A stretch of 64,000 nucleotides of DNA from an uncultured Verrucomicrobiota bacterium (lineage in GTDB: Bacteria; Verrucomicrobiota; Verrucomicrobiia; Palsa-1439; CAZOTB01). The stretch is taken from NCBI GenBank assembly GCA_964582645.1, contig CAZOTB010000001.1, positions 2,845-66,844 of the forward strand. The letters are read 5' to 3'. The notes under the pieces were generated by a model, which worked only from the letters and a program-made list of their open reading frames with translations, had not been told where the DNA came from and made no database searches. The number at the start of each line of letters is the position of its first letter. Positions within the stretch are counted from its first letter, which is position 1. Below, piece after piece: positions 2,796 through 42,195 of the stretch. The translations under genes and the position numbers were made by a program.

Positions 2796-3905
2796 ATGCC
2801 TTCCAACCTGACCACCAACCGAGTCTTCATCGCCGCGACGCGAATGAACGACGGCAAAACCACGGTCTCGCTCGGGTTGACGGCGGCGCTGCGCAAACAT
2901 TACCCGCGCATCGGTTACATCAAACCGGTCGGCCAGCGGTTTGTCGAAATCGAGGGCGCGAAAGTGGACGAAGACAGCGTGCTGATGGGACAACACCATC
3001 GCATGGACATCCCGCTCGCCGAGATGAGCCCGGTGGCGGTCGAACCGGATTTCACGCGGCGGTTTCTCTCGGGCGGCGTCGCCAACGACGCGCTCGTCCG
3101 CCGCATCGAGAAGGCGTTCGACCGGTGCGCGTGGGAAAAGGATTTCGTCATCATCGAAGGCACCGGCCACGCCGGCGTGGGCTCGGTGTTCGACCTCTCC
3201 AATGCGCGCGTCGCCAGCTTCCTCAAATCGAAAGTGATCCTCGTCACGCTCGGCGGCGTCGGGCGTCCCGTGGACGAGATCGCGTTGAACAAGGCGCTGC
3301 TCGACCAGATGGGCGTCGAGGTGATCGGCGTCATCGTCAACAAGGCGCTGCCCGACAAGGTCGAGATGGTCGCCGACTTCTGCCGACGCGGCTTCAAACG
3401 GCTCGGCCTCGACCTGCTCGGCGTGATTCCCAGCCAACCGACGCTTACCCAACCGACCGTCGAACAGGTGTGCGAAGTATTGAAAGGCGAGTTCCTGAAC
3501 GGCGACAGCAACAAGAGTTCTCGCGTCTCGCGCGTAGTGATCGGCGCCATGCGCCCGCAGAACGTGCTCGAGAACTGCGACAAAGGCGTCCTCATCATCA
3601 CCCCCGGCGACCGCGACGACCTGATCCTGGCCGTGTTGAGCAGTAGCGTGCTCGGCAACGACTCGCGCGATCGCATCGCCGGGATCGTGTTGACGCGCGA
3701 CATCACCCCGCCGAAAAACATCCTCCAGCTCGTCGGCAAGACGGACATCCCGTTGATCCTCGCCCGGGAAGGAAGCTACGCCGTGGCGAGCAAAGTGCAC
3801 GACATGACCGTCAAGACCACTGCCGGCGACACCGACAAGATCGAGTTGATCGAGCGGATTTTCGAGAAACACATTGCGACGGACAAGATTTTGGCCAAAC
3901 TATAG
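2796..3905 (+). CDS. DRTGG/AAA-type (CobQ/MinD-like) domain protein, equivalent to the N-terminal regulatory half of long Pta enzymes, encoded as a separate gene
   Basis: Frame of ORF 2547..3905. MPSNLTTNRVFIAATRMNDGKTTVSLGL (P-loop-like) ... IITPGDRDD (DRTGG motif). ATG at 2796 follows the pta stop after a short intergenic gap. Confidence 0.7.
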   Translation: MPSNLTTNRVFIAATRMNDGKTTVSLGLTAALRKHYPRIGYIKPVGQRFVEIEGAKVDEDSVLMGQHHRMDIPLAEMSPVAVEPDFTRRFLSGGVANDALVRRIEKAFDRCAWEKDFVIIEGTGHAGVGSVFDLSNARVASFLKSKVILVTLGGVGRPVDEIALNKALLDQMGVEVIGVIVNKALPDKVEMVADFCRRGFKRLGLDLLGVIPSQPTLTQPTVEQVCEVLKGEFLNGDSNKSSRVSRVVIGAMRPQNVLENCDKGVLIITPGDRDDLILAVLSSSVLGNDSRDRIAGIVLTRDITPPKNILQLVGKTDIPLILAREGSYAVASKVHDMTVKTTAGDTDKIELIERIFEKHIATDKILAKL

Positions 3906-3921
3906 CGACGAAGTTTTTCCC

Positions 3922-4896
3922 ATGACCTACACCCATCTCGGACGCAGCGGATTGAAAGTCAGCCGGCTCTGTCTCGGCACAATGAACTTCGGCCCCGTCA
4001 CCAACGAAGCCGACAGCCACGCCATCATGGACAAGGCGCTTGAAGTCGGCATCAACTTCTTCGACACCGCCAACATCTACGGCGGCAAACCGGGCGAAGG
4101 TTGGACCGAACAGATCATGGGCCGATGGTTCGCCAAGGGCGGCGGACGACGCGACAAGGTCGTGCTCGCCACCAAGGTCTATAACCGGATGGGCGAGTGG
4201 CCGAACGAATCGCGCCTGTCCGCGTTGCACATCCGCAAGGCGTGCGACGACAGCTTGCGCCGGCTGCAGACCGATCGCATTGATCTCTATCAGTTCCATC
4301 ACATAGACCGCGAGAGTCCGTGGGAGGAAATCTGGCAGGCGATGGAACAACTCGTCCAGGCCGGCAAGATCATCTACGCCGGCAGCAGCAACTTCGCAGG
4401 CTGGCACATCGCGCAGGCACAAGGCGCGGCGCAGGCCCGGCATTTCATGGGACTCGTTTCCGAGCAATGCCGCTACAACCTCACCGTGCGCCAGCCCGAG
4501 ATGGAAGTGTTGCCGGCCTGTCGTGGCTACGGTCTCGGCGTCATCCCGTGGAGTCCGCTCGCCGGTGGCCTGCTCGGTGGACGCGAAAAGACCGACGCGG
4601 GACGCCGCGTGTCGGCTTCGAAGCAAGACCCGCAGTTCTTCGAGAAGTACAAGACTCAACTCGACGCCTACGAGGCGCTCTGCCGCGAACTCGGCGAGAA
4701 ACCGGCCGACGTGGCGTTGGCGTGGCTGCTTCACAACCCCGTCGTCACTGCCCCGATCATCGGCCCGCGTACCAACGAGCAACTTAACGGCAACCTCCGC
4801 AGTCTCGAAATCAAGTTGAGCGCCGAAGTGATGAAGCGGCTCGACACCATCTGGCCCGGCCCCGGCGGCGAAGCGCCGGAGGCGTTTGCGTGGTGA
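3922..4896 (+). CDS. Aldo/keto reductase family oxidoreductase
   Basis: MTYTHLGRSGLKVSRLCLGTMNFG...IDLYQFHHID...AGSSNF is a classic AKR signature. ATG at 3922 within ORF 3874..4896. Confidence 0.85.
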   Translation: MTYTHLGRSGLKVSRLCLGTMNFGPVTNEADSHAIMDKALEVGINFFDTANIYGGKPGEGWTEQIMGRWFAKGGGRRDKVVLATKVYNRMGEWPNESRLSALHIRKACDDSLRRLQTDRIDLYQFHHIDRESPWEEIWQAMEQLVQAGKIIYAGSSNFAGWHIAQAQGAAQARHFMGLVSEQCRYNLTVRQPEMEVLPACRGYGLGVIPWSPLAGGLLGGREKTDAGRRVSASKQDPQFFEKYKTQLDAYEALCRELGEKPADVALAWLLHNPVVTAPIIGPRTNEQLNGNLRSLEIKLSAEVMKRLDTIWPGPGGEAPEAFAW

Positions 4897-4961
4897 TGCG
4901 CACGAGGGGGTGCTCAGAGGGGAGCCTTCAAGCTCTCCGTCCGGCAGCGCGGGCACTGACT

Positions 4962-5029
4962 CAAGCTGAAGCTTGAACTCCAAACGCAAGCTTCGTGAGG
5001 CTCACGTTCGGAGTTCAAGCTTCAGCGTG
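4962..5029. repeat. REP-like extragenic palindrome, family A
   Basis: CAAGCTGAAGCTTGAACTCCAAACG ... CGTTCGGAGTTCAAGCTTCAGCGTG are inverted arms around an 18 nt loop. Lies downstream of the AKR gene. Confidence 0.65.
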
Positions 5030-5123
5030 TTCGTACGCGTTCAACGGAAGGAATTCGGACAAACAGCTCAGAGGTGCGATGAGTTCTCTGAATTGTCTTT
5101 CCGCGACGAGGTACTGCTCGGAC

Positions 5124-5153
5124 TTGATTCCCGCGAATCATCTGCACTAAGAT
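5124..5153 (+). promoter_or_regulatory. Candidate sigma70-type promoter (TTGATT-N18-TAAGAT) for the 5172 gene
   Basis: -35 TTGATT at 5124-5129 and -10 TAAGAT at 5148-5153; GGAG RBS before the ATG at 5172. Confidence 0.3.
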
Positions 5154-5171
5154 GCGCGTGGAGATTGCCAT

Positions 5172-5651
5172 ATGAACCATGCCACATTCACTCTCTTTGC
5201 TGCGATGATTCTCGTCACCACCACGGACGCCGGCGATTACTCGACCAAGCGCGGCAACGCCACGCTCACCGTCACGACGGCTACGCGCGCGAAAGGCGTG
5301 CTCCAACTCCAAGCCGAACTGCAGCCGCGCAACTACGCCCGGATTGACCGCGTTTATCTCGTCACGCCCTCGGGCAAGAAACTGAAGCCGAGCGACAAGA
5401 CGACGTTCGCCGAGCAGAAGATCGAGAAGGGCGACGGCGGCAAGGAGCAGGTCGAACTCGGCGCCCAGCAGACGTCCGGCACCTATCTCTCCAACGCCTA
5501 CCTGTTCGAGTTGCCCGAGAATGAAAAGAAGGGGCGCTGGTTCTTCTACACGCAGGGCGCCGGCGCGCGCGGACAGGAGTCCGGCTTCCGCGTCGAGATT
5601 CCCGCCAAGGACATCGAGGCAGCGATGAAGGGCGACGCGGTGCCGAACTAG
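5172..5651 (+). CDS. Hypothetical secreted protein (signal peptide)
   Basis: ORF track. N-terminal MNHATFTLFAAMILVTTTDA looks like a signal peptide. No family recognised. Confidence 0.5.
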   Translation: MNHATFTLFAAMILVTTTDAGDYSTKRGNATLTVTTATRAKGVLQLQAELQPRNYARIDRVYLVTPSGKKLKPSDKTTFAEQKIEKGDGGKEQVELGAQQTSGTYLSNAYLFELPENEKKGRWFFYTQGAGARGQESGFRVEIPAKDIEAAMKGDAVPN

Positions 5652-5682
5652 TACATCGAATCATAAGTTCGTAGCAGGTTTT

Positions 5683-6381
5683 TCATGCTGCAATTGGAAG
5701 CGATTTTGCCATGTGTCGCCGCAGATCGGCTACCGTATAGCTCCACTGAACCGGCCGAGGATGCCGGTTACGCTCCTCGAAAAAGCCCAGCACTCGCTCT
5801 CTCAGTTCCTGCCGATCCCGAAAATGATTCGGAGTCAGCGCCCTCCTCTGCAGCGGTGAAAACACAATCTCCACTTGATCCAACCACGAGGCATTGATCG
5901 GCAACCAATGGATCTTCACCGCAAGGGACAGGTGCTGGGCCTCGATCCACGATTCAATCTGCTTCGGCGCGTGGGTCGGGCCGTTGTCCATGATCAAATG
6001 CAACACCGCGATCTCCTCGCACCACAGACTGCCAAAGAGCATCGACCGAAAGCTCGCAAAGTCCACAAAGCGTTTCCGCTCGCAGCAGCGTGCGATCGTC
6101 TGCCCGCTGTGAACAAACAAGGCAAGGAACAAGTGCAGGATGCCCTGACGACGATAGCGGCAGCCGACGCGCAACGGACGGTGCGCTTGCGCCGCCACCA
6201 CGCCGCCGGTCACGGTGAGCGCCTGCATACAAGTCTTCTCATCGGCACAGACGACGATCTCTCCGCGCGAAGCCAAGCCGGCGGCCTGTTCGTACAGCTT
6301 CAGCACGACGGTCGCTTTCTCCAGAAAGCGTGGATCGGTCGGTTTCTGCCAGGAGCGAACCTGCCAGGGTTTGATGCGCAC
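5683..6381 (-). mobile_element. IS630-family (DDE_3) transposase remnant, missing the N-terminal HTH region
   Basis: RSWQKPTDPRFLEKATVVLKLYEQ...VVCADEKTCMQAL...IMDNGPTHAPKQIESWIEAQ...IHWLPINASWLDQVEIVF matches the IS630/Tc1-like DDE_3 core. The same frame hits a stop ~30 codons upstream of the listed start, so roughly 100 aa of N-terminus are absent. Confidence 0.75.
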
Positions 6382-7051
6382 TTGCTGCCACCAGCGGCGG
6401 CCAGCGCACCAGAAAGTCGCACGCCATCGGCGTGACCAGGTCTTCGCCCGCCCAGTCGAGTGCCTGCGGATAGTAGGCTTTCAACGCCGCGATGAGCTGC
6501 TGCTTGCAGCCGGTGGCCTGATTGACCCGGCGGCGACGATGTTCGCACAACAGCCCGACCTGGCGCGCGACCACGGTGTCCGGCCGCCAGGGGCGCAGAT
6601 GCTCGCGATGGGCCACGAGCAACTCGTGCAGCAGGCGCGCGTCCGGCGGATCGTCCTTGGCGCCGCTGGGAGCGAACGCCTCGCGATAGCGTGTGGCGGT
6701 CATCGGGGCCACTGGATAGAGCACCAGGAAGTCGGCTTCCATCAGCTTGTGAATCAGACCGCCGCGGGATTGTTCCAGAGCGATGGCGACGGGTCGCCCG
6801 CCGAAGCGCGTGCGCAGCGTGGCGATGAACTCGGTGAGCGATTCGGCCGAGTGTGTGAGGGTGAACTCTTCGAGCGCGGCACTGCCGGCGACACTGAGGC
6901 AGACGGCGTGCTCCTGGTCGGCCCAGTCCATGCCGACGAACGCCGCCAGTGCGGCCGGGGGCGCGGGCGCCGAGGGACGCGGCGAGGGGGTTGGGTTTGG
7001 GGATTGCGTCATGGGTGTGTACTCCTTAAGGTTTGGGTTATGCGTTGCCAC
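6239..7051 (-). mobile_element. IS110-family transposase N-terminal (DEDD_Tnp_IS110-like) fragment; Transposase_20 C-terminal domain absent
   Basis: FVGMDWADQEHAVCL...RPVAIALEQSRGG...LVLYPVAPMTATRYREAFAPSGAKDDPPDARLLHELL...LRPWRPDTVVARQVGLLCEHRRRRVNQATGCKQQLIAALKAYYPQAL follows the IS110 N-domain pattern. Its 3' part (6239-6470) overlaps the IS630 fragment in another frame; the true junction is probably near 6380-6480. Confidence 0.6.
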
Positions 7052-7788
7052 GCGGACCGGGGCGCTACAGCGAAGTTCTTATCGAAGAGCTGAAGTGGCT
7101 CGTCCTCTGAGTATTCGTTCGAGCGTCCCGGCGAGGCGGCCTGGCGCGAGCGCCTCCGAGAAACGTCGTGCGTTAAGGGCGGCGATTCGTTGCCAGGCCG
7201 TCGCGTGGAATCGGTGGGGAGCATGGCAGAGAGGACCAAGATATTCACGGGGCAAATGTTTTTTTGGGCGGAGTTATTCACCGTCGGCGGGGCTACTGGT
7301 AAGCGTGCGACCGCTCTCCCCGCCGCCGGATGAACAACTCCGGACCAGCAATAAGGGCGGCGTTCCTTCCCAGCGACTTTCCAAACACGCGCTTGGGAAG
7401 TGTGCCTTGTCGGTTTGAGGTGGCGCTTCCCGCTCCAGAACGTGAAAGGGTGGACGAAAAGTCCCCATTCATGTGCGTCAGCGATCTGTGCGCTGGGATC
7501 CTGAGAGCGGGCATCTTGATCATCTCTTTCGGGTTTGTGCTGGGCCTCACTCTGCCGGACCCCATGGGTACGGACCAGAACTTTGCATGCTTGCGAAGTC
7601 GGCTCCACCTTCACGAATCAGACCCCTGCCGAGTGACTGCTCGGCCCTGTGAGCAAGTATGCTCAAGCCAGGTCACCAAGTTTCTGGGTCAATAAAGTCA
7701 CTGTAGAGGAAAGCCCCATCGAGGGGGCGATTGAGGTTTGACTCTTTCCCGGCGACTGGCCTAGAGTACGCGCCTGTTTTTCAGGGCG

Positions 7789-10581
7789 ATGATCCAGCGT
7801 TTTCTTAAGACCAGCGCGATCTCCCTCTGTTTGCTGCTCGCAGCCACTCTCATGTGTCGCGGAGCAGACAACGAGGAGGACAAGATCCTTCTCAAGGTCA
7901 CCGGCCTCTGGGGCGGAAGCGTCACGCCGCGCAAGGATGCGCGCACGCCCTCCGACAAGGCCAGCGCCGAAATTCTCGACGCCTTCCTCAAGAAGTTCCC
8001 GCAATATGGTTTCCAGCCGACGCGGACGATCCGTTTGCCCGCGGGCAGCAAGGCGCAGGAATCGGCGTTGCTGATGGCGATGGCGGGACGCACCGCGGGC
8101 GACATCATCTACGTCAACTTCCGCGTGGTGGATAACTGGGTGCGGCAGAACTTCCTCGTCCCGCTCGATTCGTTCGTGATCGAGTACGCGGAGCAGGAAT
8201 GCAAGCGGCTCGGCATTGATTATCCCAAACCACTCACGCTCGACAAGGTGGACCCGGCATGGGTCGGCATCAACCCACAGACATGGGACACCATCTACCG
8301 CCCTGACACGAAGGGCAACTGGCACGTCTGGTCGTGGCCGTACTACGAGGTGGCCATGGCGATGTATTACCGCAAGGACGTGCTGCAGGAGAAGGCACCT
8401 GCGCTCAAGGCTGCCGGGCTGGAGGTGCGGCCGCCGCGCACCTGGGAAGAAGTCATCGAATATTGCAAGGCGCTCACCGACCCGACGAAGGGCGAGTTCG
8501 GTTTCCAAAACACCACGTACGCTGGCTGGTATTTTGCAGACCTGTTGTGGCAGGGCGGCGTCGAGATCGTCGAGCGCGATACGAATCTGCAATGGCACGT
8601 CACGTGGGATTCGCCCGGCACGATTGACACGGTCCGGTTCTGGCGGGAGCTGACCAACACCGAGGTGACGAAGGACGGGAAAACGAGTTTTGTCGCGATG
8701 GACTCCGCGCGTTCCGCCACGCGCATGGGTTTCGGCGAAGGCAAGGCGGCTTTCATGTGGGCGTACTCTTCCGAGTTGAGCCTCGGCGGTTATCAGAACC
8801 TCGACCCGGAGGTGCTGGGCGCGGTGCCGTTGCCGGCCGGTCCCGTGCAGACGACGGAGGGAAAATCGCCCGAGGAATTGCTGGCGAAATACCCGCACCC
8901 GAACAAGAAGGGCTGGATTCTCTTCCCCAACGGTCGCCAGGCGCCGGCGAAGTCGCTGGTGAACTTCGGCGACGGCTGGCGCATTCGCGGCAACGAAATC
9001 AATGCGGCCATGTGGGGCATCTGCTCGCTCTGCACCGATCCGAAACGCCAGCGCGCAGCGTGGGAGTGGCTGAAATTCCAGAACAGCGACGAAGCTCGGC
9101 GCATCCGCACCACCGTGTTGGTCGAGAACGGCAGCGCCATCAGTGTGCGTCCCGACCTGCTCAAGCGGTACGGGTTCGAGGAATACTACGAGCAGGTGCC
9201 GAAAGATTGGCGCGAGGCGAACGAGGACGTGTTCCGCACCGGCCGTCCCGAGCCGAACGGGAAAAACTGCCAGTACGTTTATGATTTCATCGAGATGCCG
9301 GCGCGCGATGCGGCGGAGTTCGCTTCCCTGCCGAATCGTCGCGCCCGGATGAACAATCCGATCGTCCGTGAATCCTGGCGCAAAGCGATGGGTGGCAACG
9401 ACGACGCACTGGTGGCCAAGATGCGTTCCGAGGGCGAGGTGAAGGAGTCCGACATCGCGTTGCTCAAGCAGGACACCGCGGAGATTCAGTCCAACGTCTT
9501 GCAGAGTCTCGAACGCGCCAAGCGCCGCATGCTCGATCAACTCCCCGAGGAGGAACTCTCGAAGTATCGCAAGTACGCCGTGCTCATCGTGATCGTGGTG
9601 ACGTGCATGTGCATCTTCGGTTTGTGGGCGATCCTCCGCTTTTACGGGAAGGATGCGAAAGGCCGAATGATCGAGCAGCCGCAGCCCTCCCGGGTGCATC
9701 TGACGGCGTGGTCGTTCATGGGGCTGGCGGTGTTGAGCGTGTTGGTCTGGAACTACTACCCGCTCGCGCGCGGCGCGGTCATTGCCTTCCAGAATTACCA
9801 GATCATGGGCGGCAGCGAGTTCGTCGGTCTCGACAACTTCGTCAAAGTTTTCATCGAACCGCTCTTCACCAAGGCGGTGATCAACACGCTCCTCTGGGTC
9901 GCGCTGCAACTGGGGCTGACGTTCTTCCCGCCGATCTTTCTCGCGATCATCCTGGACGAAATCCCCAAGGGGAAACTGTTCTTCCGCATCATCTTTTATC
10001 TGCCGGCGGTCATGAGCAGCCTGGTCGTTGCGTATCTCTGGCTGTGGATGTTCTCGCCGAACCCGGACGGCCTGCTGAACTCGCTTCTGATCAAAATGCA
10101 CCTGGTCAAACCGAGCGAACCGATGGCGTGGCTGACCCGGTCACCGATTCTGGCGATGATCTGTGTGATCATTCCCGGCATCTGGGCGGGCATCGGGCCG
10201 GGCTGCATCATCTACCTCGCGGCGCTCAAAAGCATTCCTGAGGATATCTACGAGGCGGCCGACCTGGACGGCGCAAGCACGTGGCGGAAAGTGTTCGGGA
10301 TCACGCTCCCGTACCTCAAACCGCTGGTGATCATCAATTTCGTCGGTGCGTTCATCGGCGCGTTCCGCAGTTGGGAGGGCATTTTCGTGATGACGGGCGG
10401 CGGTCCGAACGACGGCACCCATGTCATCGGCATGGAAGTCTGGTACAACGCGTTCGCCTATTTGCGTTTCGGCTACGCGACCGCCGTCGCCTGGATCATC
10501 GGCGCCGCGCTGGTGGGATTCACCGTGTATCAGTTGCGAATTTTGCGCAATGTCCGGTTCACAACAGCGAAGAGGGATTGA
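7789..10581 (+). CDS. ABC importer component: signal peptide and extracellular solute-binding (family-1-like) domain fused to a MalF-type inner-membrane permease
   Basis: ORF track, 930 aa. N-terminal signal MIQRFLKTSAISLCLLLAATLMC, ~550 aa SBP-like region, then a 6-TM permease with EAA motif IYEAADLDGASTWRKVFGITLPYLKP. Paralog of 15778..18186. Confidence 0.8.
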   Translation: MIQRFLKTSAISLCLLLAATLMCRGADNEEDKILLKVTGLWGGSVTPRKDARTPSDKASAEILDAFLKKFPQYGFQPTRTIRLPAGSKAQESALLMAMAGRTAGDIIYVNFRVVDNWVRQNFLVPLDSFVIEYAEQECKRLGIDYPKPLTLDKVDPAWVGINPQTWDTIYRPDTKGNWHVWSWPYYEVAMAMYYRKDVLQEKAPALKAAGLEVRPPRTWEEVIEYCKALTDPTKGEFGFQNTTYAGWYFADLLWQGGVEIVERDTNLQWHVTWDSPGTIDTVRFWRELTNTEVTKDGKTSFVAMDSARSATRMGFGEGKAAFMWAYSSELSLGGYQNLDPEVLGAVPLPAGPVQTTEGKSPEELLAKYPHPNKKGWILFPNGRQAPAKSLVNFGDGWRIRGNEINAAMWGICSLCTDPKRQRAAWEWLKFQNSDEARRIRTTVLVENGSAISVRPDLLKRYGFEEYYEQVPKDWREANEDVFRTGRPEPNGKNCQYVYDFIEMPARDAAEFASLPNRRARMNNPIVRESWRKAMGGNDDALVAKMRSEGEVKESDIALLKQDTAEIQSNVLQSLERAKRRMLDQLPEEELSKYRKYAVLIVIVVTCMCIFGLWAILRFYGKDAKGRMIEQPQPSRVHLTAWSFMGLAVLSVLVWNYYPLARGAVIAFQNYQIMGGSEFVGLDNFVKVFIEPLFTKAVINTLLWVALQLGLTFFPPIFLAIILDEIPKGKLFFRIIFYLPAVMSSLVVAYLWLWMFSPNPDGLLNSLLIKMHLVKPSEPMAWLTRSPILAMICVIIPGIWAGIGPGCIIYLAALKSIPEDIYEAADLDGASTWRKVFGITLPYLKPLVIINFVGAFIGAFRSWEGIFVMTGGGPNDGTHVIGMEVWYNAFAYLRFGYATAVAWIIGAALVGFTVYQLRILRNVRFTTAKRD

Positions 10582-15657: not shown

Positions 15658-15777
15658 GGTCGAATCATTATTCGATTACGTCCGAAAATCAATCTCGGTC
15701 GCCGAAATCGTTTCCATCAGGCTGAAAATGGCTCGACAGGCAGTGTCGGGTTCCTAACAGTGTTGCGAGACAGTCTG

Positions 15778-34298: not shown

Positions 34299-35261
34299 AT
34301 GAAATCGAACGGTGACCAACAGAGGACCGCCTCCGAAATGGATCAGGCATCCATGGACTACGCCCGCATCGAGCGGGCGATCGGGTTCCTGTTGTCGCAC
34401 CATCTCGACCAACCGGACCTGGCCTCGGTCGCGCGCCATGTGCATCTGAGCGAATATCACTTCCAGCGACTCTTCTCGCGTTGGGCGGGGATCAGCCCGA
34501 AGCGGTTCTTGCAGTGCCTGACGGTCGAGCACGCAAAGCAGCGGTTGGCAGAATCGAAAGCGCTCCTCGATGTGACGCTCGAATCGGGACTCTCCAGTCC
34601 GAGCCGGCTGCATGACCTGTTCGTCTCGGTCGAGGCCATGACTCCGAATGAGTTCAAGCAGCGTGGCACAGGCCTCCGCATCCGGTACGGCCTGCATCCG
34701 AGTCCGTTCGGGACATGTCTGCTGGCGACCACGGACCGGGGCGTGTGCGGTCTTTCGTTCGTGGACCACGGCCGGGACTCGGTCGCTGTGCAGGAATTAC
34801 ACTCAACCTGGAGTGACGCTCGTCTCGAAGAGCATCCCGGAACCACTGCTCCCATTGCGTCGCAGATCTTTGATCCGTTGAGCCGGGGACGCCGCCCGGA
34901 CCTCAGCCTCCTGTTGAAGGGCACGAACTTTCAACTCAAAGTCTGGAGGGCGCTGCTGCAAATTCCGCCCGGCGCGGTTGTCTCGTACGACGCAGTAGCA
35001 CGCTGGATTGGTGAATCGCGCGCCGCGCGCGCCGTGGCGAACGCCGTTGGCTCGAACCCGATCGCCTACCTGATTCCCTGCCACCGCGTCATCCGACAAA
35101 CGGGCGTCATCACCGGCTATCGCTGGGGGACAACCCGCAAGCGAGCAATCCTGGCCCGGGAAGCGGTGGACGAATTCAATTCCGAGGCTTGCGCTTCCGC
35201 TTTCCGCAGTCCATCATATCGGCACGGTGCGAACGCATCCCGCGTTCGCATGGGAGCATGA
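34299..35261 (+). CDS. Ada-like bifunctional protein: AraC-type HTH plus methylated-DNA-[protein]-cysteine S-methyltransferase
   Basis: AraC HTH ...LSEYHFQRLFSRWAGISPKRFLQ...; MGMT active site LIPCHRVI with the helix-turn-wing. Confidence 0.8.
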   Translation: MKSNGDQQRTASEMDQASMDYARIERAIGFLLSHHLDQPDLASVARHVHLSEYHFQRLFSRWAGISPKRFLQCLTVEHAKQRLAESKALLDVTLESGLSSPSRLHDLFVSVEAMTPNEFKQRGTGLRIRYGLHPSPFGTCLLATTDRGVCGLSFVDHGRDSVAVQELHSTWSDARLEEHPGTTAPIASQIFDPLSRGRRPDLSLLLKGTNFQLKVWRALLQIPPGAVVSYDAVARWIGESRAARAVANAVGSNPIAYLIPCHRVIRQTGVITGYRWGTTRKRAILAREAVDEFNSEACASAFRSPSYRHGANASRVRMGA

Positions 35262-37189
35262 CAGAGCACGCAACAGATCCGCGACCCGGCCTCGATGAGG
35301 ACGTCGCGCTGCGAAGAATCCTCGAAGGCACCGCGGGGGAGACGGGCGAACAATTCTTCGTCGCGCTCGTACGCAATCTCGTGCAAAGACTTGAGGTGTA
35401 CGCTGCTTGGGTAACCGAATACCTGCCCGAACAACGACGACTGCGGGCCCTGGCATTCTGGTTCGGCGACCGGTTCATCCCTCACTTCGAATACGACGTG
35501 GCAGGGACACCGTGCGAGTCGGTCATTAACTGCGCGCGGCTCATCCACTTTCCTGACGGCTTGGTTCAACTCTTCCCCCACGACGACGACCTGAAAAAAG
35601 CGCACATCGCCAGTTACATGGGCGCTCCGATGTTCGACACGGATGGACGAATCATCGGCAATCTCGGTGTCATGGATACGAAACCGATGCAGGACGTCGC
35701 CCCTTGCCAGACGTTGATCCGCGTCTTTGCGGCGCGGGCAGCCGCGGAATACCGGCGACTCCAGGCCGAGGCAAAAGTGCGCGAACGCCAGGAGCAACTC
35801 GGTCGGCTCCTCGACAGCGCAATGGATTCGATCGTCGAACTCGATCGCGACTTGCGCGTGACGCTTATCAACCCGGCCGCCGAAAAAGTGTTCGGGTGCA
35901 ATGCGGCAACTGCGGTCGGAAAGGATTTCCGTCCCTTCCTCTCCGACGAAAGCGCTCGGAAACTCGCCACGTTAATCGGCGAACTCGGCGCGCGGCCCGG
36001 TGGCCGACAACATTTCTGGATTCCAGCCGGGCTGGAAGCGCGGACGGCGAAGGGTCAGATGTTTCCGGCTGAGGCGACGCTGTCGCGGTCGGAGAAGGAT
36101 GGCGCGCCCTTCTACACCGTCATCCTGCGCGACTTGAACGAACGAGTCGAAGCCGAGCAGAAGATCCGGGCGCTGACGGACGAAGCTGAATACCTCAGGC
36201 AGGAAATCAAGGAGCTTCATAACTTTGACGAGATCATTGGTCAGAGCCAGCCGCTGTTGCGCGTGCTGCGCGACGTGAAACAGGTGGCGCAGACAGATGC
36301 GACAGTGTTGTTGCAGGGCGAAACCGGCACGGGCAAGGAATTGATCGCCCGCGCGATCCACAGCGCCAGCCGTCGCCACGACAAGCCGTTGATCAAGGTC
36401 AACTGCGCGGCGATCCCGGCGACATTAATCGAGAGCGAGTTCTTCGGACACGAACGCGGCGCGTTCACCGGCGCGACCGGGAAACGCGAGGGACGATTCG
36501 CCCTGGCGGACAAAGGCACGATCTTCCTCGACGAGGTCGGCGAGATTCCACTCGACCTGCAATCGAAGCTGTTGCGCGTGTTGCAGGAGGGCGAGTTCGA
36601 GCCGGTGGGCAGTTCTCAGACGCGCAAAGTGAACGTGCGCGTGATCGCCGCCACGAACCGCGACCTGCAGCAGGCGGTGAAGGACGGAAAATTCCGCGAT
36701 GATCTGTACTACCGGCTCAACGTGTTCCCGATTCGCATCCCGCCGCTGCGCGAACGCCTCGACGACATCCCGTCGCTGGCATCGAGTTTTGTGAAACGAT
36801 TCGCCCAGCAACTTGGCCGCAAGATCGAGCCATTGACCGCGAGCGATGTGTTGCGGTTGAAAGCCTACACGTGGCCCGGCAACGTGCGCGAGTTGGAGAA
36901 CGTGATCGAGCGCGCTGTCATCACCGCGCAGAACGGCCGCCTGAATCTCGACCGCGCGTTACCGGAGGCCAGCGCAGTCTCGTCCCCCAAACCTGCTGCG
37001 ACAGAGGAAGCAAGTGATTCGATCCGCACGGTGGCCGAGATGGAAGCGTTGGAGCGCATGAACATCGTGCGAGCGCTCGAAGCCACGAACGGACGCGTCG
37101 CAGGAGACAACGGCGCAGCCCGGTTGCTCGGCATGAAGCCCTCGACGCTCAGCTCCCGCATGAAAGCGTTGGGGATCAAGAAGGCTTAG
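35258..37189 (+). CDS. Sigma-54-dependent Fis-family transcriptional activator with N-terminal GAF and PAS sensor domains
   Basis: AAA+ sigma54 interaction domain LLQGETGTGKELIARAIH, GAFTGA loop, ESEFFGHERGAFTGA, C-terminal Fis HTH. Start at ATG 35258 overlaps the upstream stop (ATGA). Confidence 0.9.
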   Translation: MTEHATDPRPGLDEDVALRRILEGTAGETGEQFFVALVRNLVQRLEVYAAWVTEYLPEQRRLRALAFWFGDRFIPHFEYDVAGTPCESVINCARLIHFPDGLVQLFPHDDDLKKAHIASYMGAPMFDTDGRIIGNLGVMDTKPMQDVAPCQTLIRVFAARAAAEYRRLQAEAKVRERQEQLGRLLDSAMDSIVELDRDLRVTLINPAAEKVFGCNAATAVGKDFRPFLSDESARKLATLIGELGARPGGRQHFWIPAGLEARTAKGQMFPAEATLSRSEKDGAPFYTVILRDLNERVEAEQKIRALTDEAEYLRQEIKELHNFDEIIGQSQPLLRVLRDVKQVAQTDATVLLQGETGTGKELIARAIHSASRRHDKPLIKVNCAAIPATLIESEFFGHERGAFTGATGKREGRFALADKGTIFLDEVGEIPLDLQSKLLRVLQEGEFEPVGSSQTRKVNVRVIAATNRDLQQAVKDGKFRDDLYYRLNVFPIRIPPLRERLDDIPSLASSFVKRFAQQLGRKIEPLTASDVLRLKAYTWPGNVRELENVIERAVITAQNGRLNLDRALPEASAVSSPKPAATEEASDSIRTVAEMEALERMNIVRALEATNGRVAGDNGAARLLGMKPSTLSSRMKALGIKKA

Positions 37190-37199
37190 CCGCTACGGC

Positions 37200-37255
37200 T
37201 CACGAAATTTCGCGAACGTCGCTCACGAATTCTCGTGAACCACGAAATGTCGTGA
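37200..37255. promoter_or_regulatory. Three tandem 16 bp inverted repeats (TCACGA-N4-TCGTGA), candidate upstream activator/operator sites
   Basis: TCACGAAATTTCGCGA (37200-37215), TCACGAATTCTCGTGA (37223-37238), CCACGAAATGTCGTGA (37240-37255). They lie in the 202 bp gap between the sigma54-activator gene and the SBP56 gene. Confidence 0.45.
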
Positions 37256-37391
37256 CGCTCCCGTCAGTGCCCGACTTTCACGGAAGCCCCGTCTTTATTG
37301 GCGAATCCGCACTTTCGCTCCCGCTGGCACGATGCGTGTTAATGGTCTTTGCCGGAGCATGAACGAAACAAAACAAAGAAAGGAAAGTGTC

Positions 37392-38726
37392 ATGAATCAG
37401 CCCCTTGTTTGGAAACGGATCGGAGCAACGCGCGCACTCGGCTTCGCGATTCTCGCTGCCGCTTTCATCGCTCAACCATCACTTCTCCGCGCCGACGAGA
37501 CGTGCATGTCGCCGTACATGGCGAAGATCACCGGCCAGGAGGATTACGTGTATGTCTGGACGCTCGGCGTCGAAGGACTCGGCGACGGCTCGGACAAACT
37601 GGTCACCATTGATGCGCACCCCGCCTCGCCGACGTACGGCAAGGTGATCCACAGCGTGTCGGTGGGCGGACGGCACGAGGCGCACCACGGCGGGTTCACC
37701 GATGACCGCCGGCTGTTCTGGCTGTCGGGTCTCGACACAAGCCGCATTTTCATCTTCGACATTCGCACCGATCCCGGCAAACCGAAGCTCATCAAGACGA
37801 TTACAGATTTCACGAAAGCCACCGGCGGCGCGGTCGGGCCGCACGGCATCTACGCCATGCCGGGGCGCGTGATCATCCCGTGTCTCTCGAACGACAAGGA
37901 TCGAAACGGACGCACCGCTTTCGTCGAGTACACCAACGAGGGCAACTACATCGCCACGCACTGGATGCCCACCGACGACAACCCGCGCGGCGCGAAGATC
38001 GAAAAGGTTGCCGACGGGTACGGCTACGACCTGCGCGTGTTGCCGCGAAAAAACGTCATGCTCAGTTCGTCATTCACGGGTTGGAACAACTACATGATGG
38101 ACTTTGGCAAGATGCTCGCCGACCCGGAGGCGATGAAGCGGTTCGGGCAAACGATGGTGCTCTGGAATCTGCACACGCGCCAACCGCGCCAGGTGTTCCA
38201 CGTGCCCGGCGCGCCGCTCGAAGTGCGTTGGGCGTGGGGTGCGCGGAACAATTACGCGTTCACTGCCGCGGCGCTCACGGCGAAGCTCTGGCTCGTCTAT
38301 GAAGATACCGACGGCGAGTGGAAAGCGAAGGCCGTCGCGGACATTGGCGATCCGGCCAAAATCCCGCTCCCCGTGGACATCAGCATCAGCGCCGACGACA
38401 AGACGCTGTTTGTGTGCACGTTCATGGACGGCAAATGCCGTGTGTTCGACGTGTCCGACCCGCATCAGCCGCGACAGACTTACGAGGAAGTGATCGGCAA
38501 ACAGGTCAACATGGTTTCGCAAAGCTGGGACGGCAAGCGGCTGTACTTCACCACTTCGCTGCTCGCCAATTGGGACAAGAAGGGCGCGGACAACGACCAG
38601 TTCATCAAAGCGTACGATTGGGACGGCAAGAAGCTCACGCAGCGGTTCGCGATCGATTTCACTGAAGCCAAGCTCGGCCGCGCTCACATCATGCGGTTCG
38701 GCGCGAAGAGTCTTTATGCGGATTAA
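37392..38726 (+). CDS. Selenium-binding-protein (SBP56) family protein, secreted; methanethiol-oxidase (MtoX)-like
   Basis: Signal peptide, then TCMSPYMAKITGQEDYVYVWTLG...HHGGF...YDWDGKKL, typical of the SBP56 beta-propeller family. ATG at 37392 with AAAGGAAAG RBS. Confidence 0.8.
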   Translation: MNQPLVWKRIGATRALGFAILAAAFIAQPSLLRADETCMSPYMAKITGQEDYVYVWTLGVEGLGDGSDKLVTIDAHPASPTYGKVIHSVSVGGRHEAHHGGFTDDRRLFWLSGLDTSRIFIFDIRTDPGKPKLIKTITDFTKATGGAVGPHGIYAMPGRVIIPCLSNDKDRNGRTAFVEYTNEGNYIATHWMPTDDNPRGAKIEKVADGYGYDLRVLPRKNVMLSSSFTGWNNYMMDFGKMLADPEAMKRFGQTMVLWNLHTRQPRQVFHVPGAPLEVRWAWGARNNYAFTAAALTAKLWLVYEDTDGEWKAKAVADIGDPAKIPLPVDISISADDKTLFVCTFMDGKCRVFDVSDPHQPRQTYEEVIGKQVNMVSQSWDGKRLYFTTSLLANWDKKGADNDQFIKAYDWDGKKLTQRFAIDFTEAKLGRAHIMRFGAKSLYAD

Positions 38727-38818
38727 GGAGGAACGAACCATGTACCAGCTCATTACATCGCTCATGTCGCTCCCGCAGTGCGCCGTAGCGGCAATCAAAG
38801 ACTCCCCCTCACCTTTAT

Positions 38819-38893
38819 CCTCTCCCCCGGTGGGGAGAGGAAACAACCACGAGCACGCATTCGAGATGATCTCCTCTCCCCTTGGGGGAGAGG
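38819..38893. repeat. Two tandem copies of hairpin CCTCTCCCC-loop-GGGGAGAGG downstream of the SBP56 gene
   Basis: CCTCTCCCCCGGTGGGGAGAGG (38819-38840) and CCTCTCCCCTTGGGGGAGAGG (38873-38893); no U-tract follows either. Confidence 0.4.
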
Positions 38894-39060
38894 GCAGGGT
38901 GAGGGGTGCTGCTCGAAGTCCTCGCAGCTCACAAATCAACTCAGAGGTAGCCGGCCAGATGCGTCGCAACTCCGTTAGGAGCGTAATGTTTATAGCACGT
39001 CGTCTATCAGAATGGTCCAAGCCCCGTCAGGGGCGGCATGTGAAGCGCCACACGCAATCC

Positions 39061-39882
39061 ATGTCGCTCCATACGGAGCTTCAACCGGCGTTGCGCGGAC
39101 AAACCATAAACAGGTCGCCCCTGACGGGGCTCGTGCGATCGGTGCGGTGGGTCGCCGTTTGGTTCGTGGCGATCTTCTCCGCACTGGGCATGTTGGCATC
39201 GGGTGAGCAGAATCAGAAAGCCAACGCGCTTCCGGAGTTGGCCTTGGGTCGCACAGTCCTGCACGACTACGATCCGCCGAAGCCGGGCAGCTACGAGTTG
39301 CCCGCGATCAAGCTCGCGGCCGACGGCGCGATCCTCGGCGAAGACGGCAAGGCGCACCGGCTCCGCGAGATGTTCGACGGCAAGATCAGTGTGCTGGCGT
39401 TCATCTACACGCGTTGCACCGATCCGCGCGCGTGCCCGTACGCGACGCGCGTGCTGTACCAACTCCACCAGGTCAGCGGCGAAGACCCGGTCCTCGCCAA
39501 GAACCTGCACCTGGTCACGATGAGCTTCGATCCCGCGCATGACACGCCCGAGGTGATGTCGAAGTTCAAGAATCGCTACGAGCCGGAGCGACCGGGCGCG
39601 AAGTGGTCGTACCTGACCACCCAGCGGGCCGAGGACATCAAGGCGATCCTCGACGCGTATGGCCAGGCCGTGGATCGAAAGAAGAATGCAAACTCAGAAT
39701 CTGGCCCGTTCTTCCATCAACTGCGGGTGTACCTCGTGGACCGCAAGGGGATGATCCGCAACATCTACAGCTACGAGTTGCTCGATCCCCGGCTGGTCGT
39801 GACGGACATCCGCACGCTGTTACTGGAGGAACAGGCCAAGACAAGCGTGGCCGCAATGCGCCACGAGAACTACATAAAATAA
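39061..39882 (+). CDS. SCO1/SenC-family thioredoxin-like copper chaperone (membrane-anchored)
   Basis: C-terminal part of ORF 38716..39882: TM WVAVWFVAIFSALGMLASG, then ISVLAFIYTRCTDPRACPY (Cys pair, C-x5-C variant) ... HLVTMSFDPAHDTP. Start uncertain (ATG 39061 or a downstream GTG); the upstream part of the long ORF is hairpin-rich and probably non-coding. Confidence 0.65.
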   Translation: MSLHTELQPALRGQTINRSPLTGLVRSVRWVAVWFVAIFSALGMLASGEQNQKANALPELALGRTVLHDYDPPKPGSYELPAIKLAADGAILGEDGKAHRLREMFDGKISVLAFIYTRCTDPRACPYATRVLYQLHQVSGEDPVLAKNLHLVTMSFDPAHDTPEVMSKFKNRYEPERPGAKWSYLTTQRAEDIKAILDAYGQAVDRKKNANSESGPFFHQLRVYLVDRKGMIRNIYSYELLDPRLVVTDIRTLLLEEQAKTSVAAMRHENYIK

Positions 39883-39903: not shown

Positions 39904-40473
39904 ATGACAACACAGAAACAAGTCAACGGCGTCAACGTGGAGCAATTGTTCCAGACGATTGATGCCATCAAGGTCACGCCCAAGATCGCGAAGTTCAAGT
40001 TCAGTGCGAAGAACCAGTGGCAGGGCGGCGGCCACAATCGCACCACCATCAACGAGTTCGAGGGCGCTTGCCAGCGGCACGCGCGGAAAGAGCCGTTCGT
40101 GTTGGACAATGACGAGCCGCCCGTCCTGCTCGGCAAGGACATCGGCGCGAACCCGGTCGAGCAGGTCTTGCACGCGCTCGCCGGTTGCCTGACGAGTTCG
40201 CTCGTCTATCACGCCGCCGCGCGCGGTATCAAACTCGACGAGGTCGAGTCCACCTACGAAGGCGACCTCGATCTGCACGGTTTCCTCGGACTCGATCCGA
40301 AGGTGCGCAACGGCTACGAGCAGCTCCGCGTCACGTTCAAAGTGAAAGGCGACGCGCCGCCGGAGAAGCTGCAGGAACTCGTCGAGCTCGCGCAGAAGCG
40401 TTCGCCGGTCTTCGACATCGTCACCCACGGCGTGCCGGTCAAGGTCACGCTGGCGAAAAGAAACTCGCAATGA
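39904..40473 (+). CDS. OsmC/Ohr-family peroxiredoxin-like protein
   Basis: 189 aa; [19 protein letters not shown] and the C-terminal pattern are typical of OsmC. RBS AAAGGAATG. Confidence 0.8.
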
Positions 40474-40886
40474 AGAACATGGCCATCGTGGTTCGCGACG
40501 ACGGGTTCGACAAGCTGCTCACGCCGCTGACGTTCGCATTCGTCCAGGCACGAAAGGGCGTCCAGGTGGACATCCTTTTCGTGCTCTGGGCAGTGCGGGC
40601 GTTGACGGAAGCTGGGTTGCGGTCGCTCAAAGTGAGTGGCTCGCATGCTGCCGAGGAAGCGTGGCTCAAGGAGAAGCTGGCGCGGGAGGGCGATCCGACC
40701 GACATCCACGAGTTCCTCAAGCTGCTCAAGAGCACGCGCAACGTGAGGCTTTATGGTTGCCGGTTGGCGGCCGCTACGTTCGAGGTCAATGAGTCCAACC
40801 TGATCCCCGAAGCAGATGGCATCGTGGACTCGGGTTGGTTCTTGAACGAGAAAGCGGTCCCGGCAGACCACTGCCAGTACTTCTGA
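40470..40886 (+). CDS. DsrE/DsrF-like (YchN-fold) sulfur-relay family protein
   Basis: ATG 40470 overlaps the osmC stop (ATGA). [45 protein letters not shown] resembles DsrE-family proteins. Confidence 0.6.
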
Positions 40887-40893
40887 ACAGGCA

Positions 40894-42195
40894 ATGACGG
40901 AGGATCATCCCATGCAAGCAACTCAACTCCCACCCGGCTTCAATGACCTGATGAAGTTCGGCTTGGTCGAAGCCCTCCTCGGACGCCGCTCGCGGCGATT
41001 CTTTCGCGGCGCGGAAATCCCGGATGGGCCGTTGGCATACAAATCCAAGCATCCGCCCATGCCGTTGTCTGAGTTGGAAAAACAACTCGTCGTCATGGCG
41101 TGCGGCGGCAACACCGGCTGGCACGACATGATCTACCGGGCCCAGCGTTACGCGCCGCACCTCTCGAACTACTCCGGCGCGGCGGGCGGGCGGGCGTTTC
41201 CCTCGGCGGCGGGATTCCACACCAGCAAAACGTTCTTCACGGACGACGACGGCGTGTACGTGCTCGACGTCCGCGACGAACCCGCGCAGGCGGAACGCGA
41301 TGAGGATGGATCGCTCGATCTGGAGACGCTGCTCGCAGCGAACCGTCGCCACATCCGCAAACTATGGGACGGTCGGCTCGGCCTCCCGGCGGAAGTGCCG
41401 TTCACCGAGGCGCACAACACCTGGGTGGCGAACCAGCCGGGAACGCTGCTGGTCATGCCCGTGGGAGATTTGTCGCAGCACGTGCTGCTCGCAATCTGTT
41501 ACATGCTCCAAAACGGACTGGTTCTTACCGATGACATCAATCGCCGTTCCATCCCGGGCATCGAGAAGTTCAGTGGTATCGTGGACGTGAGCAAGACGTG
41601 GCCGATCACGTTCGTCGAACAATGGTCGCTGGCCGAGTTGACGGTCGAACTCGGCACGAGCTGTTACGCGGGTGCGCTCGTGCTGCAATCCATGGGGCTC
41701 GGTGGCTGGATGTTCAACGGACTCGATCCATGGTCGGTGCTCGGCGCGAGCGGCGACCCGCGCGTGCCCGGATTGAAATTCCGCTACGACACCAACGACC
41801 GCTGGCCGTACCCGAACCCGACCGGCCTCGCGGGCGTGATGGAAGGATACTGTCCGCCGCATTACCCGAATATGCGCGCGGCGGTGGACGCGCTGTGCGA
41901 GCGCAAATTCGGCAAGGGCGGCCCGTTCCACGCCGGGACGCCCGGCCCGTGGAAGGATTCGGCAGGCGTTCGCTCCTCGGCGCAGGTCCACAGCGAGGAA
42001 TTTCGGGAATGCGTGGCTCTCCAGGCGCAGTATATCTACGACACCTTCGGCAAATTCCCCGGCACCGTCGCATCCATGTTTGTGATCATGTACCTCCAGG
42101 CGCATCATCTCGACCTGGAGTTCTACGACAAGTTCTACAAACCCGGCTCATACCTGCGGACGCATGCCGAGCACATGGAGCGATGGCACTCATAG
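40894..42195 (+). CDS. Nitroreductase-superfamily protein, SagB-type dehydrogenase-like
   Basis: RRSRRFF ... GRAFPSAAGFHT (SagB-like R..PSAG motif) ... second half SCYAGALVLQSMGLGGWMFNG (nitroreductase-like). Function unknown. Confidence 0.5.
   Translation: MTEDHPMQATQLPPGFNDLMKFGLVEALLGRRSRRFFRGAEIPDGPLAYKSKHPPMPLSELEKQLVVMACGGNTGWHDMIYRAQRYAPHLSNYSGAAGGRAFPSAAGFHTSKTFFTDDDGVYVLDVRDEPAQAERDEDGSLDLETLLAANRRHIRKLWDGRLGLPAEVPFTEAHNTWVANQPGTLLVMPVGDLSQHVLLAICYMLQNGLVLTDDINRRSIPGIEKFSGIVDVSKTWPITFVEQWSLAELTVELGTSCYAGALVLQSMGLGGWMFNGLDPWSVLGASGDPRVPGLKFRYDTNDRWPYPNPTGLAGVMEGYCPPHYPNMRAAVDALCERKFGKGGPFHAGTPGPWKDSAGVRSSAQVHSEEFRECVALQAQYIYDTFGKFPGTVASMFVIMYLQAHHLDLEFYDKFYKPGSYLRTHAEHMERWHS

Follow-up and report, generated by a model that had tools for sequence, protein, structure and literature searches.

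A probable three-dyad enhancer between a sigma-54 activator gene and the methanethiol oxidase operon of an uncultured Verrucomicrobiota bacterium

A multi-dyad enhancer of a single-component GAF-containing bacterial enhancer-binding protein (bEBP) is a well-known kind of element. At E. coli norVW, NorR acts through three GT-N7-AC dyads, all of which are needed for hexamer formation, for ATPase activity and for open-complex formation; an integration host factor (IHF) site was reported at norV as well (PMC2831303). PexR of Myxococcus xanthus, an H2O2-sensing GAF bEBP, has three tandem CACCG-n6-CGGTG dyads that are conserved with the regulator; it controls ahpC and katB, and its targets include peroxide-defence genes (PMC12754779). 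Here we describe an array of three 16-bp dyads in a 64,000-nt stretch of DNA (hereafter the window) from an uncultured Verrucomicrobiota bacterium (GenBank assembly GCA_964582645.1, contig CAZOTB010000001.1, positions 2,845 to 66,844). The array is situated between a bEBP gene and mtoX, the gene of a methanethiol oxidase of the SBP56 family. As judged from sequence comparison, the three dyads are very probably the enhancer, or upstream activator sequence (UAS), of the GAF-PAS-AAA+-HTH_8 activator encoded upstream, which would drive the mtoX operon from a sigma-54 promoter.

Like NorR, the window regulator is a GAF-containing single-component bEBP with three tandem dyads upstream of a sigma-54 promoter, which in the window is a proposed one, and the AAA+ and helix-turn-helix (HTH) regions of the two proteins are 45% identical. 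However, the E. coli genome sequence shows spacings of 21 and 24 bp between the centres of the NorR dyads and 62 bp from the last centre to GG, compared to 23 and 17 bp and a distance of 78.5 bp in the window. A PAS domain is present in the window regulator and absent from NorR, whose gene is, in addition, divergent from the target. The IHF site of norV has no exact consensus counterpart in the spacer of the window. Membership in the NorR regulon was considered and rejected, given the different motif, the marginal GAF alignment, the extra PAS domain and a score of 388 against the NCBIfam NorR model (cut-off 476). A matrix made from the window sites reached a maximum of only 5 in the E. coli norR-norV, hycA-hypA and pspF-pspA regions, while the window sites score 18.6-19.9 with the same matrix; therefore, the window motif is distinct from the motifs of NorR, FhlA and PspF.

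The PexR system resembles the window system in that three tandem interrupted palindromes serve as the UAS of a GAF bEBP. On the other hand, the half-site and spacer of PexR (CACCG-n6-CGGTG) differ from CGA-N4-TCG in the window, PexR lacks a PAS domain, and PexR also represses a sigma-A promoter. Membership in the PexR regulon was rejected as well, on the published motif, which is different, and on the GAF-AAA+-HTH architecture of PexR, to which the window regulator adds a PAS domain.

The closest characterised relative by sequence is FhlA of E. coli (the formate hydrogenlyase activator), with 52% identity over the AAA+-HTH region and the top NCBIfam match. The recognition regions of FhlA and of the window regulator are very similar (TTLLSRMKRLGI vs STLSSRMKALGI). 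Still, the window regulator is not an FhlA: model NF011958 gave 404 bits against a cut-off of 830, only residues 305-642 align, and the N-terminal sensory region is unrelated. The UAS of FhlA is described as one of the TGT-N10-12-ACA type (PMC6615313), and the two regulators differ in their targets.

With respect to the controlled genes, the nearest described case is Ruegeria pomeroyi, where methanethiol induces the operon and the gene just ahead of mtoX-SCO1/SenC codes for an IclR-type regulator (PMC5739008). MtoX converts methanethiol to sulfide, formaldehyde and H2O2 (PMC5739008). The window has the same placement of a regulator gene directly upstream of mtoX-SCO1/SenC, while the regulator family and the promoter class are wholly different.

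Dyad array and its conservation with the regulator

The regulator gene and the three sites are as follows.

35258..37189, plus strand: bEBP gene, 643 aa, with GAF, PAS, sigma-54 AAA+ and HTH_8 domains; presumed binder of the three dyads
37200..37215, unstranded: UAS site 1, the promoter-distal dyad TCACGAAATTTCGCGA; 22-23 bp ahead of site 2, the homologous position is filled in the 14 orthologous loci
37223..37238, unstranded: UAS site 2, the middle dyad TCACGAATTCTCGTGA; C4, G5, A6, T11 and C12 are invariant in 15/15 loci
37240..37255, unstranded: UAS site 3, the promoter-proximal dyad CCACGAAATGTCGTGA; the 17-bp offset from site 2 is identical in 15/15 loci

The initial annotation had placed three 16-bp inverted repeats, spaced by 23 and 17 bp, between a sigma-54 activator gene and an SBP56 gene. 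Re-reading the coordinates gave the same result: the starts, and hence the centres, of the dyads are separated by 23 and 17 bp. The array begins 11 bp past the stop of the regulator gene (37189) and ends 137 bp before the mtoX ATG (37392). A motif search was run over the 64-kb window. The degenerate pattern YCACGAANNNTCGYGA, with at most one mismatch allowed, produced 5 strand-hits, all of them at the three dyads, compared to 0.81 expected; this number was reached by 0/100 shuffles. An enhancer is expected to have at least two dyad-symmetric copies above chance, and the window has three. It is also expected to have a cognate bEBP nearby. The product of the adjacent gene, which was called with the length of 643 aa in an independent annotation of the source contig too, matches the Pfam families GAF, PAS, Sigma54_activat (1.3e-74), AAA_lid_14 and HTH_8. 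Its Walker A motif at residue 354 and its GAFTGA motif at residue 401 are intact, so that both the AAA+ motifs of sigma-54 interaction and the HTH domain are in place.

We searched the regulator protein against species-representative genomes and metagenome contigs. The relatives were full-length and 42-65% identical to the query; they came from metagenome-assembled genomes (MAGs) labelled as delta proteobacterium, Calditrichia, Blastocatellales/Blastocatellia, Ignavibacteria, Planctomycetota/Pirellulales, Nitrospiraceae and Binatia, as well as from unclassified contigs. Among metagenome contigs, no closer relative was found above ~65% identity, and the four contigs coding for the same protein were 100% identical; therefore, the exact intergenic region offers no fine-scale footprinting. 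The intergenic sequences behind homologous regulator genes carried arrays of two or three dyads, and matches to TCACGA-N4-TCGTGA (at most two mismatches) appeared right behind the regulator stop in locus after locus.

To avoid circularity, the site matrix was built solely from the three window dyads and was used with a threshold of 10 bits. We observed 27 matrix hits in the 300 bp behind 18 homologous regulator genes (5.4 kb in total), which is 5.0 per kb, compared to 0.105 per kb in the remaining fetched DNA (~858 kb). The enrichment was ~48-fold (binomial p ~1e-35). The sites are, therefore, co-conserved with orthologs of the regulator, and this co-conservation across phyla supports the earlier suggestion of a UAS array for the adjacent bEBP.

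Three dyads were present in 15 loci (the window, L001, L002, L003, L005, L006, L007, L008, L012, L088, L089, L090, L096, L091 and L093). With near-duplicates allowed for, they correspond to about nine independent lineages, and the 14 orthologous loci to about eight further ones, from Blastocatellia, Calditrichia, Ignavibacteria, one deltaproteobacterial MAG and unclassified metagenome contigs. The sites are conserved in all these loci with a fixed geometry and in linkage to the regulator: from start to start, sites 1 and 2 are 22 or 23 bp apart and sites 2 and 3 exactly 17 bp (15/15 loci). The core nnnCGA-N4-TCGnnn hardly varies and has an A/T-rich centre (AAWT), while the outer arm bases are variable and their complementarity is often lost. 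Such a pattern fits recognition of half-sites by a protein rather than an RNA stem. The regulator gene is the only neighbour that is kept across the triple-dyad loci; the genes downstream vary.

The recognition helix of the HTH_8 domain differs between clades. In the loci with three sites it reads mostly (S/T)TLSSR(M/I/L)KAL, with minor variants TLGSR, TLNSK and TLVSR. In a clade with two dyads 18-20 bp apart it reads mostly NTLRSRMKKL, with variants STLRSRMQKL and NTLRFRMKKL, and two-dyad arrays of the CCACGA/TCGTGG flavour were seen in L014, L015, L020-22, L024 and L025. The Nitrospiraceae homologs with the helix TTLEARMKKL had no such dyads. Across the aligned proteins and their intergenic regions, the recognition helix co-varies with the DNA motif.

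A case of altered orientation was observed in L004, where the OsmC-like target is divergent from the regulator. Here the array faces the target, in flipped orientation, with the promoter TGGCAGATCGATTGCA behind it; from the centre of the last dyad to GG there are 65.5 bp, a helical turn less than elsewhere. Therefore, the array keeps to its own promoter rather than to the regulator gene's 3' end. The same locus (3395-7470) has two tandem regulator paralogs (58% and 60% identity) beside the divergent OsmC-like gene, and a second dyad pair is found behind the second paralog (7544 and 7563).

We also made several observations on loci with other arrangements. The sister clade of regulators with two dyads comprises L014, L015, L016, L020/L022, L021, L024 and L025; where mapped (L014, L015, L021 and L025), its proposed sigma-54 promoter is 104-120 bp further on. 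The targets in this clade include a STAS protein and a molybdopterin oxidoreductase (L014) and a zinc alcohol dehydrogenase (L015), and L015 has an additional dyad pair upstream of the regulator (5561 and 5581). In L009 and L011 (Nitrospiraceae), the first ~150 bp past the regulator stop contain short repeats GTCATCCGTCAA / ACGTCATTCGTCAA followed by an inverted copy TTGACGAATGACGGATGACGGATGACG, which may be a different binding motif or a hairpin. In L087 (2318-2700), a close relative of L001, only site 1 is kept (TCACGAAAATTCGTTT), and the rest of the array and the promoter have apparently been replaced; this suggests a rearranged or decayed locus.

One more inverted repeat of the window, near 15658, had been described as similar to the dyads. 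The repeat does exist (TCGAATCATTATTCGA at 15660-15675), and it adjoins CAT, a possible start of a minus-strand gene. The similarity did not hold: the half-site is different, the score is below the threshold of the site matrix, and we rejected this repeat as a relative of the enhancer.

Promoter, proposed mechanism and competing explanations

Two features follow the array.

37256..37324, unstranded: spacer of 69 bp from enhancer to promoter; conserved in length, not in sequence
37325..37340, plus strand: proposed sigma-54 promoter TGGCACGATGCGTGTT; -24 GG at 37326-27, -12 dinucleotide GT at 37338-39

Measured back from the GG at 37326, the centres of the dyads are at 78.5, 95.5 and 118.5 bp, within the range of roughly 70-150 bp upstream expected of an enhancer. 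In the 14 orthologous loci, the distance between GG and the last dyad's centre was 72.5-78.5 bp. The spacers from site 3 to the promoter were 63-69 bp long in these loci, with GC content varying from 17% to 64%. The ortholog promoters were searched for as the best GG-N10-G[C/T]; C or T was allowed at the second base of the -12 element, so the search had no bias toward GC.

The initial annotation had noted TGGCAC at 37325-37330, dismissed it as a -24 element because no properly spaced GC followed, and left the promoter class unresolved. The first part was read correctly, as the GG-N10 is followed by GT. The dismissal was not upheld, since the element has the same position as the promoters of the 14 orthologs. 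The -24 sequence TGGCACG is perfect and the GG-N10 spacing is correct; the -12 element reads GT instead of GC. E. coli pspA has a classical sigma-54/PspF-dependent promoter. Its -12 element is GT as well (TGGCACGCAAATTGTA; the promoter read from MG1655 is TGGCACGCAAATTGTATT). Given the GG at the position shared with 14 orthologous GG-N10-GC promoters (78.5 bp in the window) and the pspA precedent for GT, the promoter is provisionally assigned to the sigma-54 class with a non-consensus -12 base. Transcription would start near 37350; the ribosome-binding site AAAGGAAAG and the ATG at 37392 would then follow a leader of ~40 nt. A terminator scan returned a weak hairpin TGGCACGATGCGTGTTA with a T-rich tail at 37325-37341, on the proposed -24/-12 element. 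This call is within the shuffle expectation, is absent in the orthologs and is probably meaningless.

From the array and the promoter we infer binding by the regulator, the use of three dimers per hexamer, dependence on sigma-54, the extent of the operon and the presence of a signal, in the following way. Each dyad would be bound by one regulator dimer via the C-terminal HTH_8 domains, and the three neighbouring dimers, offset by 23 and 17 bp, would template one AAA+ hexamer. The number of sites is appropriate, because a dyad fits a dimer and the ring has six protomers. Upon receiving a signal through the GAF-PAS module, the hexamer would contact the sigma-54 RNA polymerase at TGGCAC-N5-GTGT (37325-37340), ~78 bp downstream. 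ATP hydrolysis would then open the promoter for transcription of mtoX, the SCO1/SenC gene, the osmC-like gene, the dsrE-like gene and, probably, the gene of a 433-aa protein.

Several points weigh against this mechanism. The -12 element is TGC in 14/14 orthologs, and the window alone has TGT. The sigma-54 scan proposed in the initial annotation was run over the whole window as a consensus scan (TGGCAC-N5-TTGCW, at most two mismatches) and gave 29 hits compared to 30.7 expected, i.e. the chance level. Since the consensus match alone is not above chance, we base the promoter call on the conserved position; the probability of a chance match on the right strand in the 7-bp range is ~0.002 (29/128,000 per position x 7). 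In the spacers of the 14 loci no exact match to the IHF consensus was found. The templating of the hexamer by three dimers, likely as it is, was drawn from the analogy with NorR and PexR. Finally, the PAS domain is FixL-like in sequence, but a leucine aligns at the heme histidine of FixL, and we rejected it as a heme sensor; the GAF domain aligns with that of NorR only marginally (E = 0.13), and we rejected it as a NorR-type iron centre.

The -12 base is central to an alternative that we consider unlikely, namely that the enhancer is real while the promoter of the window is crippled by the change from GC to GT, so that the operon is weak, leaky or transcribed from another promoter, e.g. by read-through from the regulator gene. 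The window is indeed the only one among 15 loci with GT at -12, and no terminator is found between the regulator gene and mtoX save the weak hairpin call overlapping the promoter. However, the window dyads make the best-scoring array of all loci (18.5-22 bits) with the spacing intact, which argues against decay. Four contigs of separate samples, three from JGI metagenomes and one from a Logan assembly, agree in every base of the 202-bp intergenic region between the regulator and mtoX, so the GT is not an assembly error; the same GT is present at pspA. Considerably less probable is an array of operators for another dimeric repressor or activator of mtoX, of the sigma-70 type, with the bEBP as a bystander; an operator array had been the second suggestion of the initial annotation. 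Tandem palindromes are typical of repressor operators too, and mtoX of Ruegeria is under an IclR-type regulator (PMC5739008). Nevertheless, a scan of 36900-37700 for a sigma-70 (-35/-10) promoter found none. The array follows the bEBP ortholog across phyla whatever the downstream gene is, the neighbourhood has no second conserved regulator gene, and the -24/-12 element stands at a fixed distance from the array. We therefore disfavour the operators.

It is also hard to see the palindromes as RNA 3' hairpins, acting as a terminator or stabiliser of the regulator mRNA, and we regard this as very improbable. The 81-nt stretch does fold better than shuffled sequences (-27.7 kcal/mol, z = -3.0); this favourable fold is what palindromes are expected to give. 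At 37200-37255 there was neither a U-tract nor a terminator call, and no Rfam match was found in 37100-37450 (E <= 1). The conservation is the opposite of that of a stem: CGA/TCG and the A/T centre are kept, while the outer pairing is often lost (5-10/15 pairs kept at positions 1-2). In L004, moreover, the regulator gene does not have the array at its 3' end. The least credible of all is a chance cluster or a dispersed repeat of the repetitive extragenic palindrome (REP) or miniature inverted-repeat transposable element (MITE) type, which has only the repetitive appearance in its favour. The sites are confined to one location in 64 kb, with 0.81 hits expected, and their position is conserved across phyla.

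Regulator, operon and recurrent targets

The genes downstream of the promoter are as follows.

37392..38726, plus strand: mtoX, SBP56-family methanethiol oxidase with an N-terminal signal-like segment; first gene of the operon
39061..39882, plus strand: SCO1/SenC-domain gene (Pfam SCO1-SenC); start uncertain, with alternatives at 38716 and 38740
39904..40473, plus strand: OsmC-like gene, 189 aa, single conserved Cys (Pfam OsmC)
40470..40886, plus strand: DsrE-like gene, 138 aa, weak Pfam DrsE_2 match; 4-nt overlap with the stop of the osmC-like gene
40894..42195, plus strand: gene of a 433-aa protein, 7 nt after the DsrE-like gene; no Pfam or NCBIfam match

The mtoX product scored 754 bits against the NCBIfam MtoX equivalog NF052453, above the cut-off of 650, and matched Pfam SBP56 at 9e-48. 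The SCO1/SenC protein is presumed to be the copper chaperone for MtoX. Its gene was called as 273 aa and as 380 aa in different assemblies; read as 38716-39882, it has an N-terminal region of ~200 residues with no family match. In Hyphomicrobium and others, the arrangement mtoX-SCO1-mauG has been described. The mtoX cluster of the window showed no MauG-like gene; the OsmC-like, DsrE-like and 433-aa genes come instead. As read from the gene spacing, the DsrE-like gene is probably in the same operon as the osmC-like gene, and the 433-aa gene is possibly the last one.

OsmC-like proteins belong to a family of the peroxiredoxin type. The window protein had 64.8 bits with the NCBIfam 'OsmC-related (seleno)protein' model, below the cut-off of 95. 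The cysteine is found in ALAGC/ALAAC (the window, L003, L005, L007, L008, L012, L091 and L093). At the position expected for the second Cys, the homologs have mostly SPV(F/Y), with SMVY in L012 and SIVY in L007.

The first gene behind the array differs among the loci:

OsmC-like: L003, L005, L006 (truncated), L007, L008, L012 and L093; divergent in L004
MtoX: the window; also L090 and L096/L097, there behind a small open reading frame (ORF)
Distant SBP56 (27% identity): L088
Acyl-CoA-dehydrogenase-like protein: L001
Unannotated proteins: L002 and L089

The OsmC-like gene was the most frequent first gene behind the triple-dyad enhancer in the other lineages. It is present in L091 too, ~1 kb downstream of the array, and was thus excluded from the count. 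Judged by these gene contents, the conserved targets are the one-Cys OsmC-like gene and/or SBP56/MtoX, and the window operon has both.

In L006 (an Ignavibacteriales MAG, 8171-8400), the OsmC-like gene has an internal deletion, with ~62 N-terminal residues fused to FPVSVSIEDEF; the three dyads and the promoter are intact in spite of the truncated gene. Selenocysteine was considered for this gene and rejected, as there is an internal deletion and no recoded TGA. In L090 (6137-6410) and L096 (~3520-3790), an ORF of ~90 aa (MPKYIIERKIPNAGKLSPKEL...) is positioned between the sigma-54 promoter and mtoX.

In the regulator, the GAF cysteine C86 (motif GTPCE) is invariant in 18/18 aligned homologs. 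The motif varies as G-T/S-P-C-E/Q/G, with H-P-C-E in L016 and E-T-P-C-G in L089. The cysteine is kept even in distant clades that use other DNA geometries, and it is a candidate sensing residue. Upstream of the regulator is a gene (34299-35261) for an Ada-like protein, in which an AraC-type HTH is joined to an O6-methylguanine-DNA methyltransferase domain. The stop of this gene and the regulator ATG (35258) share an overlap of 4 nt (ATGA), which suggests translational coupling of the two genes. This AraC/methyltransferase neighbour has no counterpart in the other loci.

The inducing signal could be methanethiol or one of its oxidation products (sulfide/persulfide or H2O2), possibly received via the invariant GAF cysteine. 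The recurrent targets, namely MtoX, the one-Cys OsmC-like protein and the DsrE-like protein, make it reasonable to hypothesise a thiol, a persulfide or a peroxide as the signal. A broader proposal, which we put forward tentatively and consider possible rather than probable, is that the regulator represents a cross-phylum clade defined by GTPCE, the motif TnnCGA-AWWT-TCGnnA and a rigid three-dyad enhancer (22/23 and 17 bp, ~76 bp to -24). Its members would sense methanethiol or its oxidation products (sulfide/persulfide, H2O2) and control SBP56/MtoX and the one-Cys OsmC-like gene.

In the literature searched, we found no paper joining methanethiol oxidase with sigma-54, the dyad motif was printed nowhere in a relevant context, and the IclR-type regulator was the sole regulator of mtoX described. 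The dyad motif, the regulator clade and the control of mtoX and the OsmC-like gene by sigma-54 thus appear undescribed there.

For uncultured bacteria, the locus offers a concrete and testable cis-regulatory code of an organosulfur-cycle operon, with motif, number of sites, spacing and promoter. The layout, invariant over spacers of 17% to 64% GC, makes a natural data set on the building of a hexamer from three dimers and on the reach of a short loop to the sigma-54 polymerase. The regulator and enhancer pair is a possible biosensor part once the inducer is identified. If the proposal of a methanethiol-sensor clade is true, this would be the first sigma-54-dependent regulon of methanethiol oxidation, with an enhancer whose distance to the promoter is fixed to within a few bp, apparently with no use of IHF. 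The interest of the finding comes mainly from the strict geometry across phyla and from the handle that it gives on the regulation of methanethiol oxidation.

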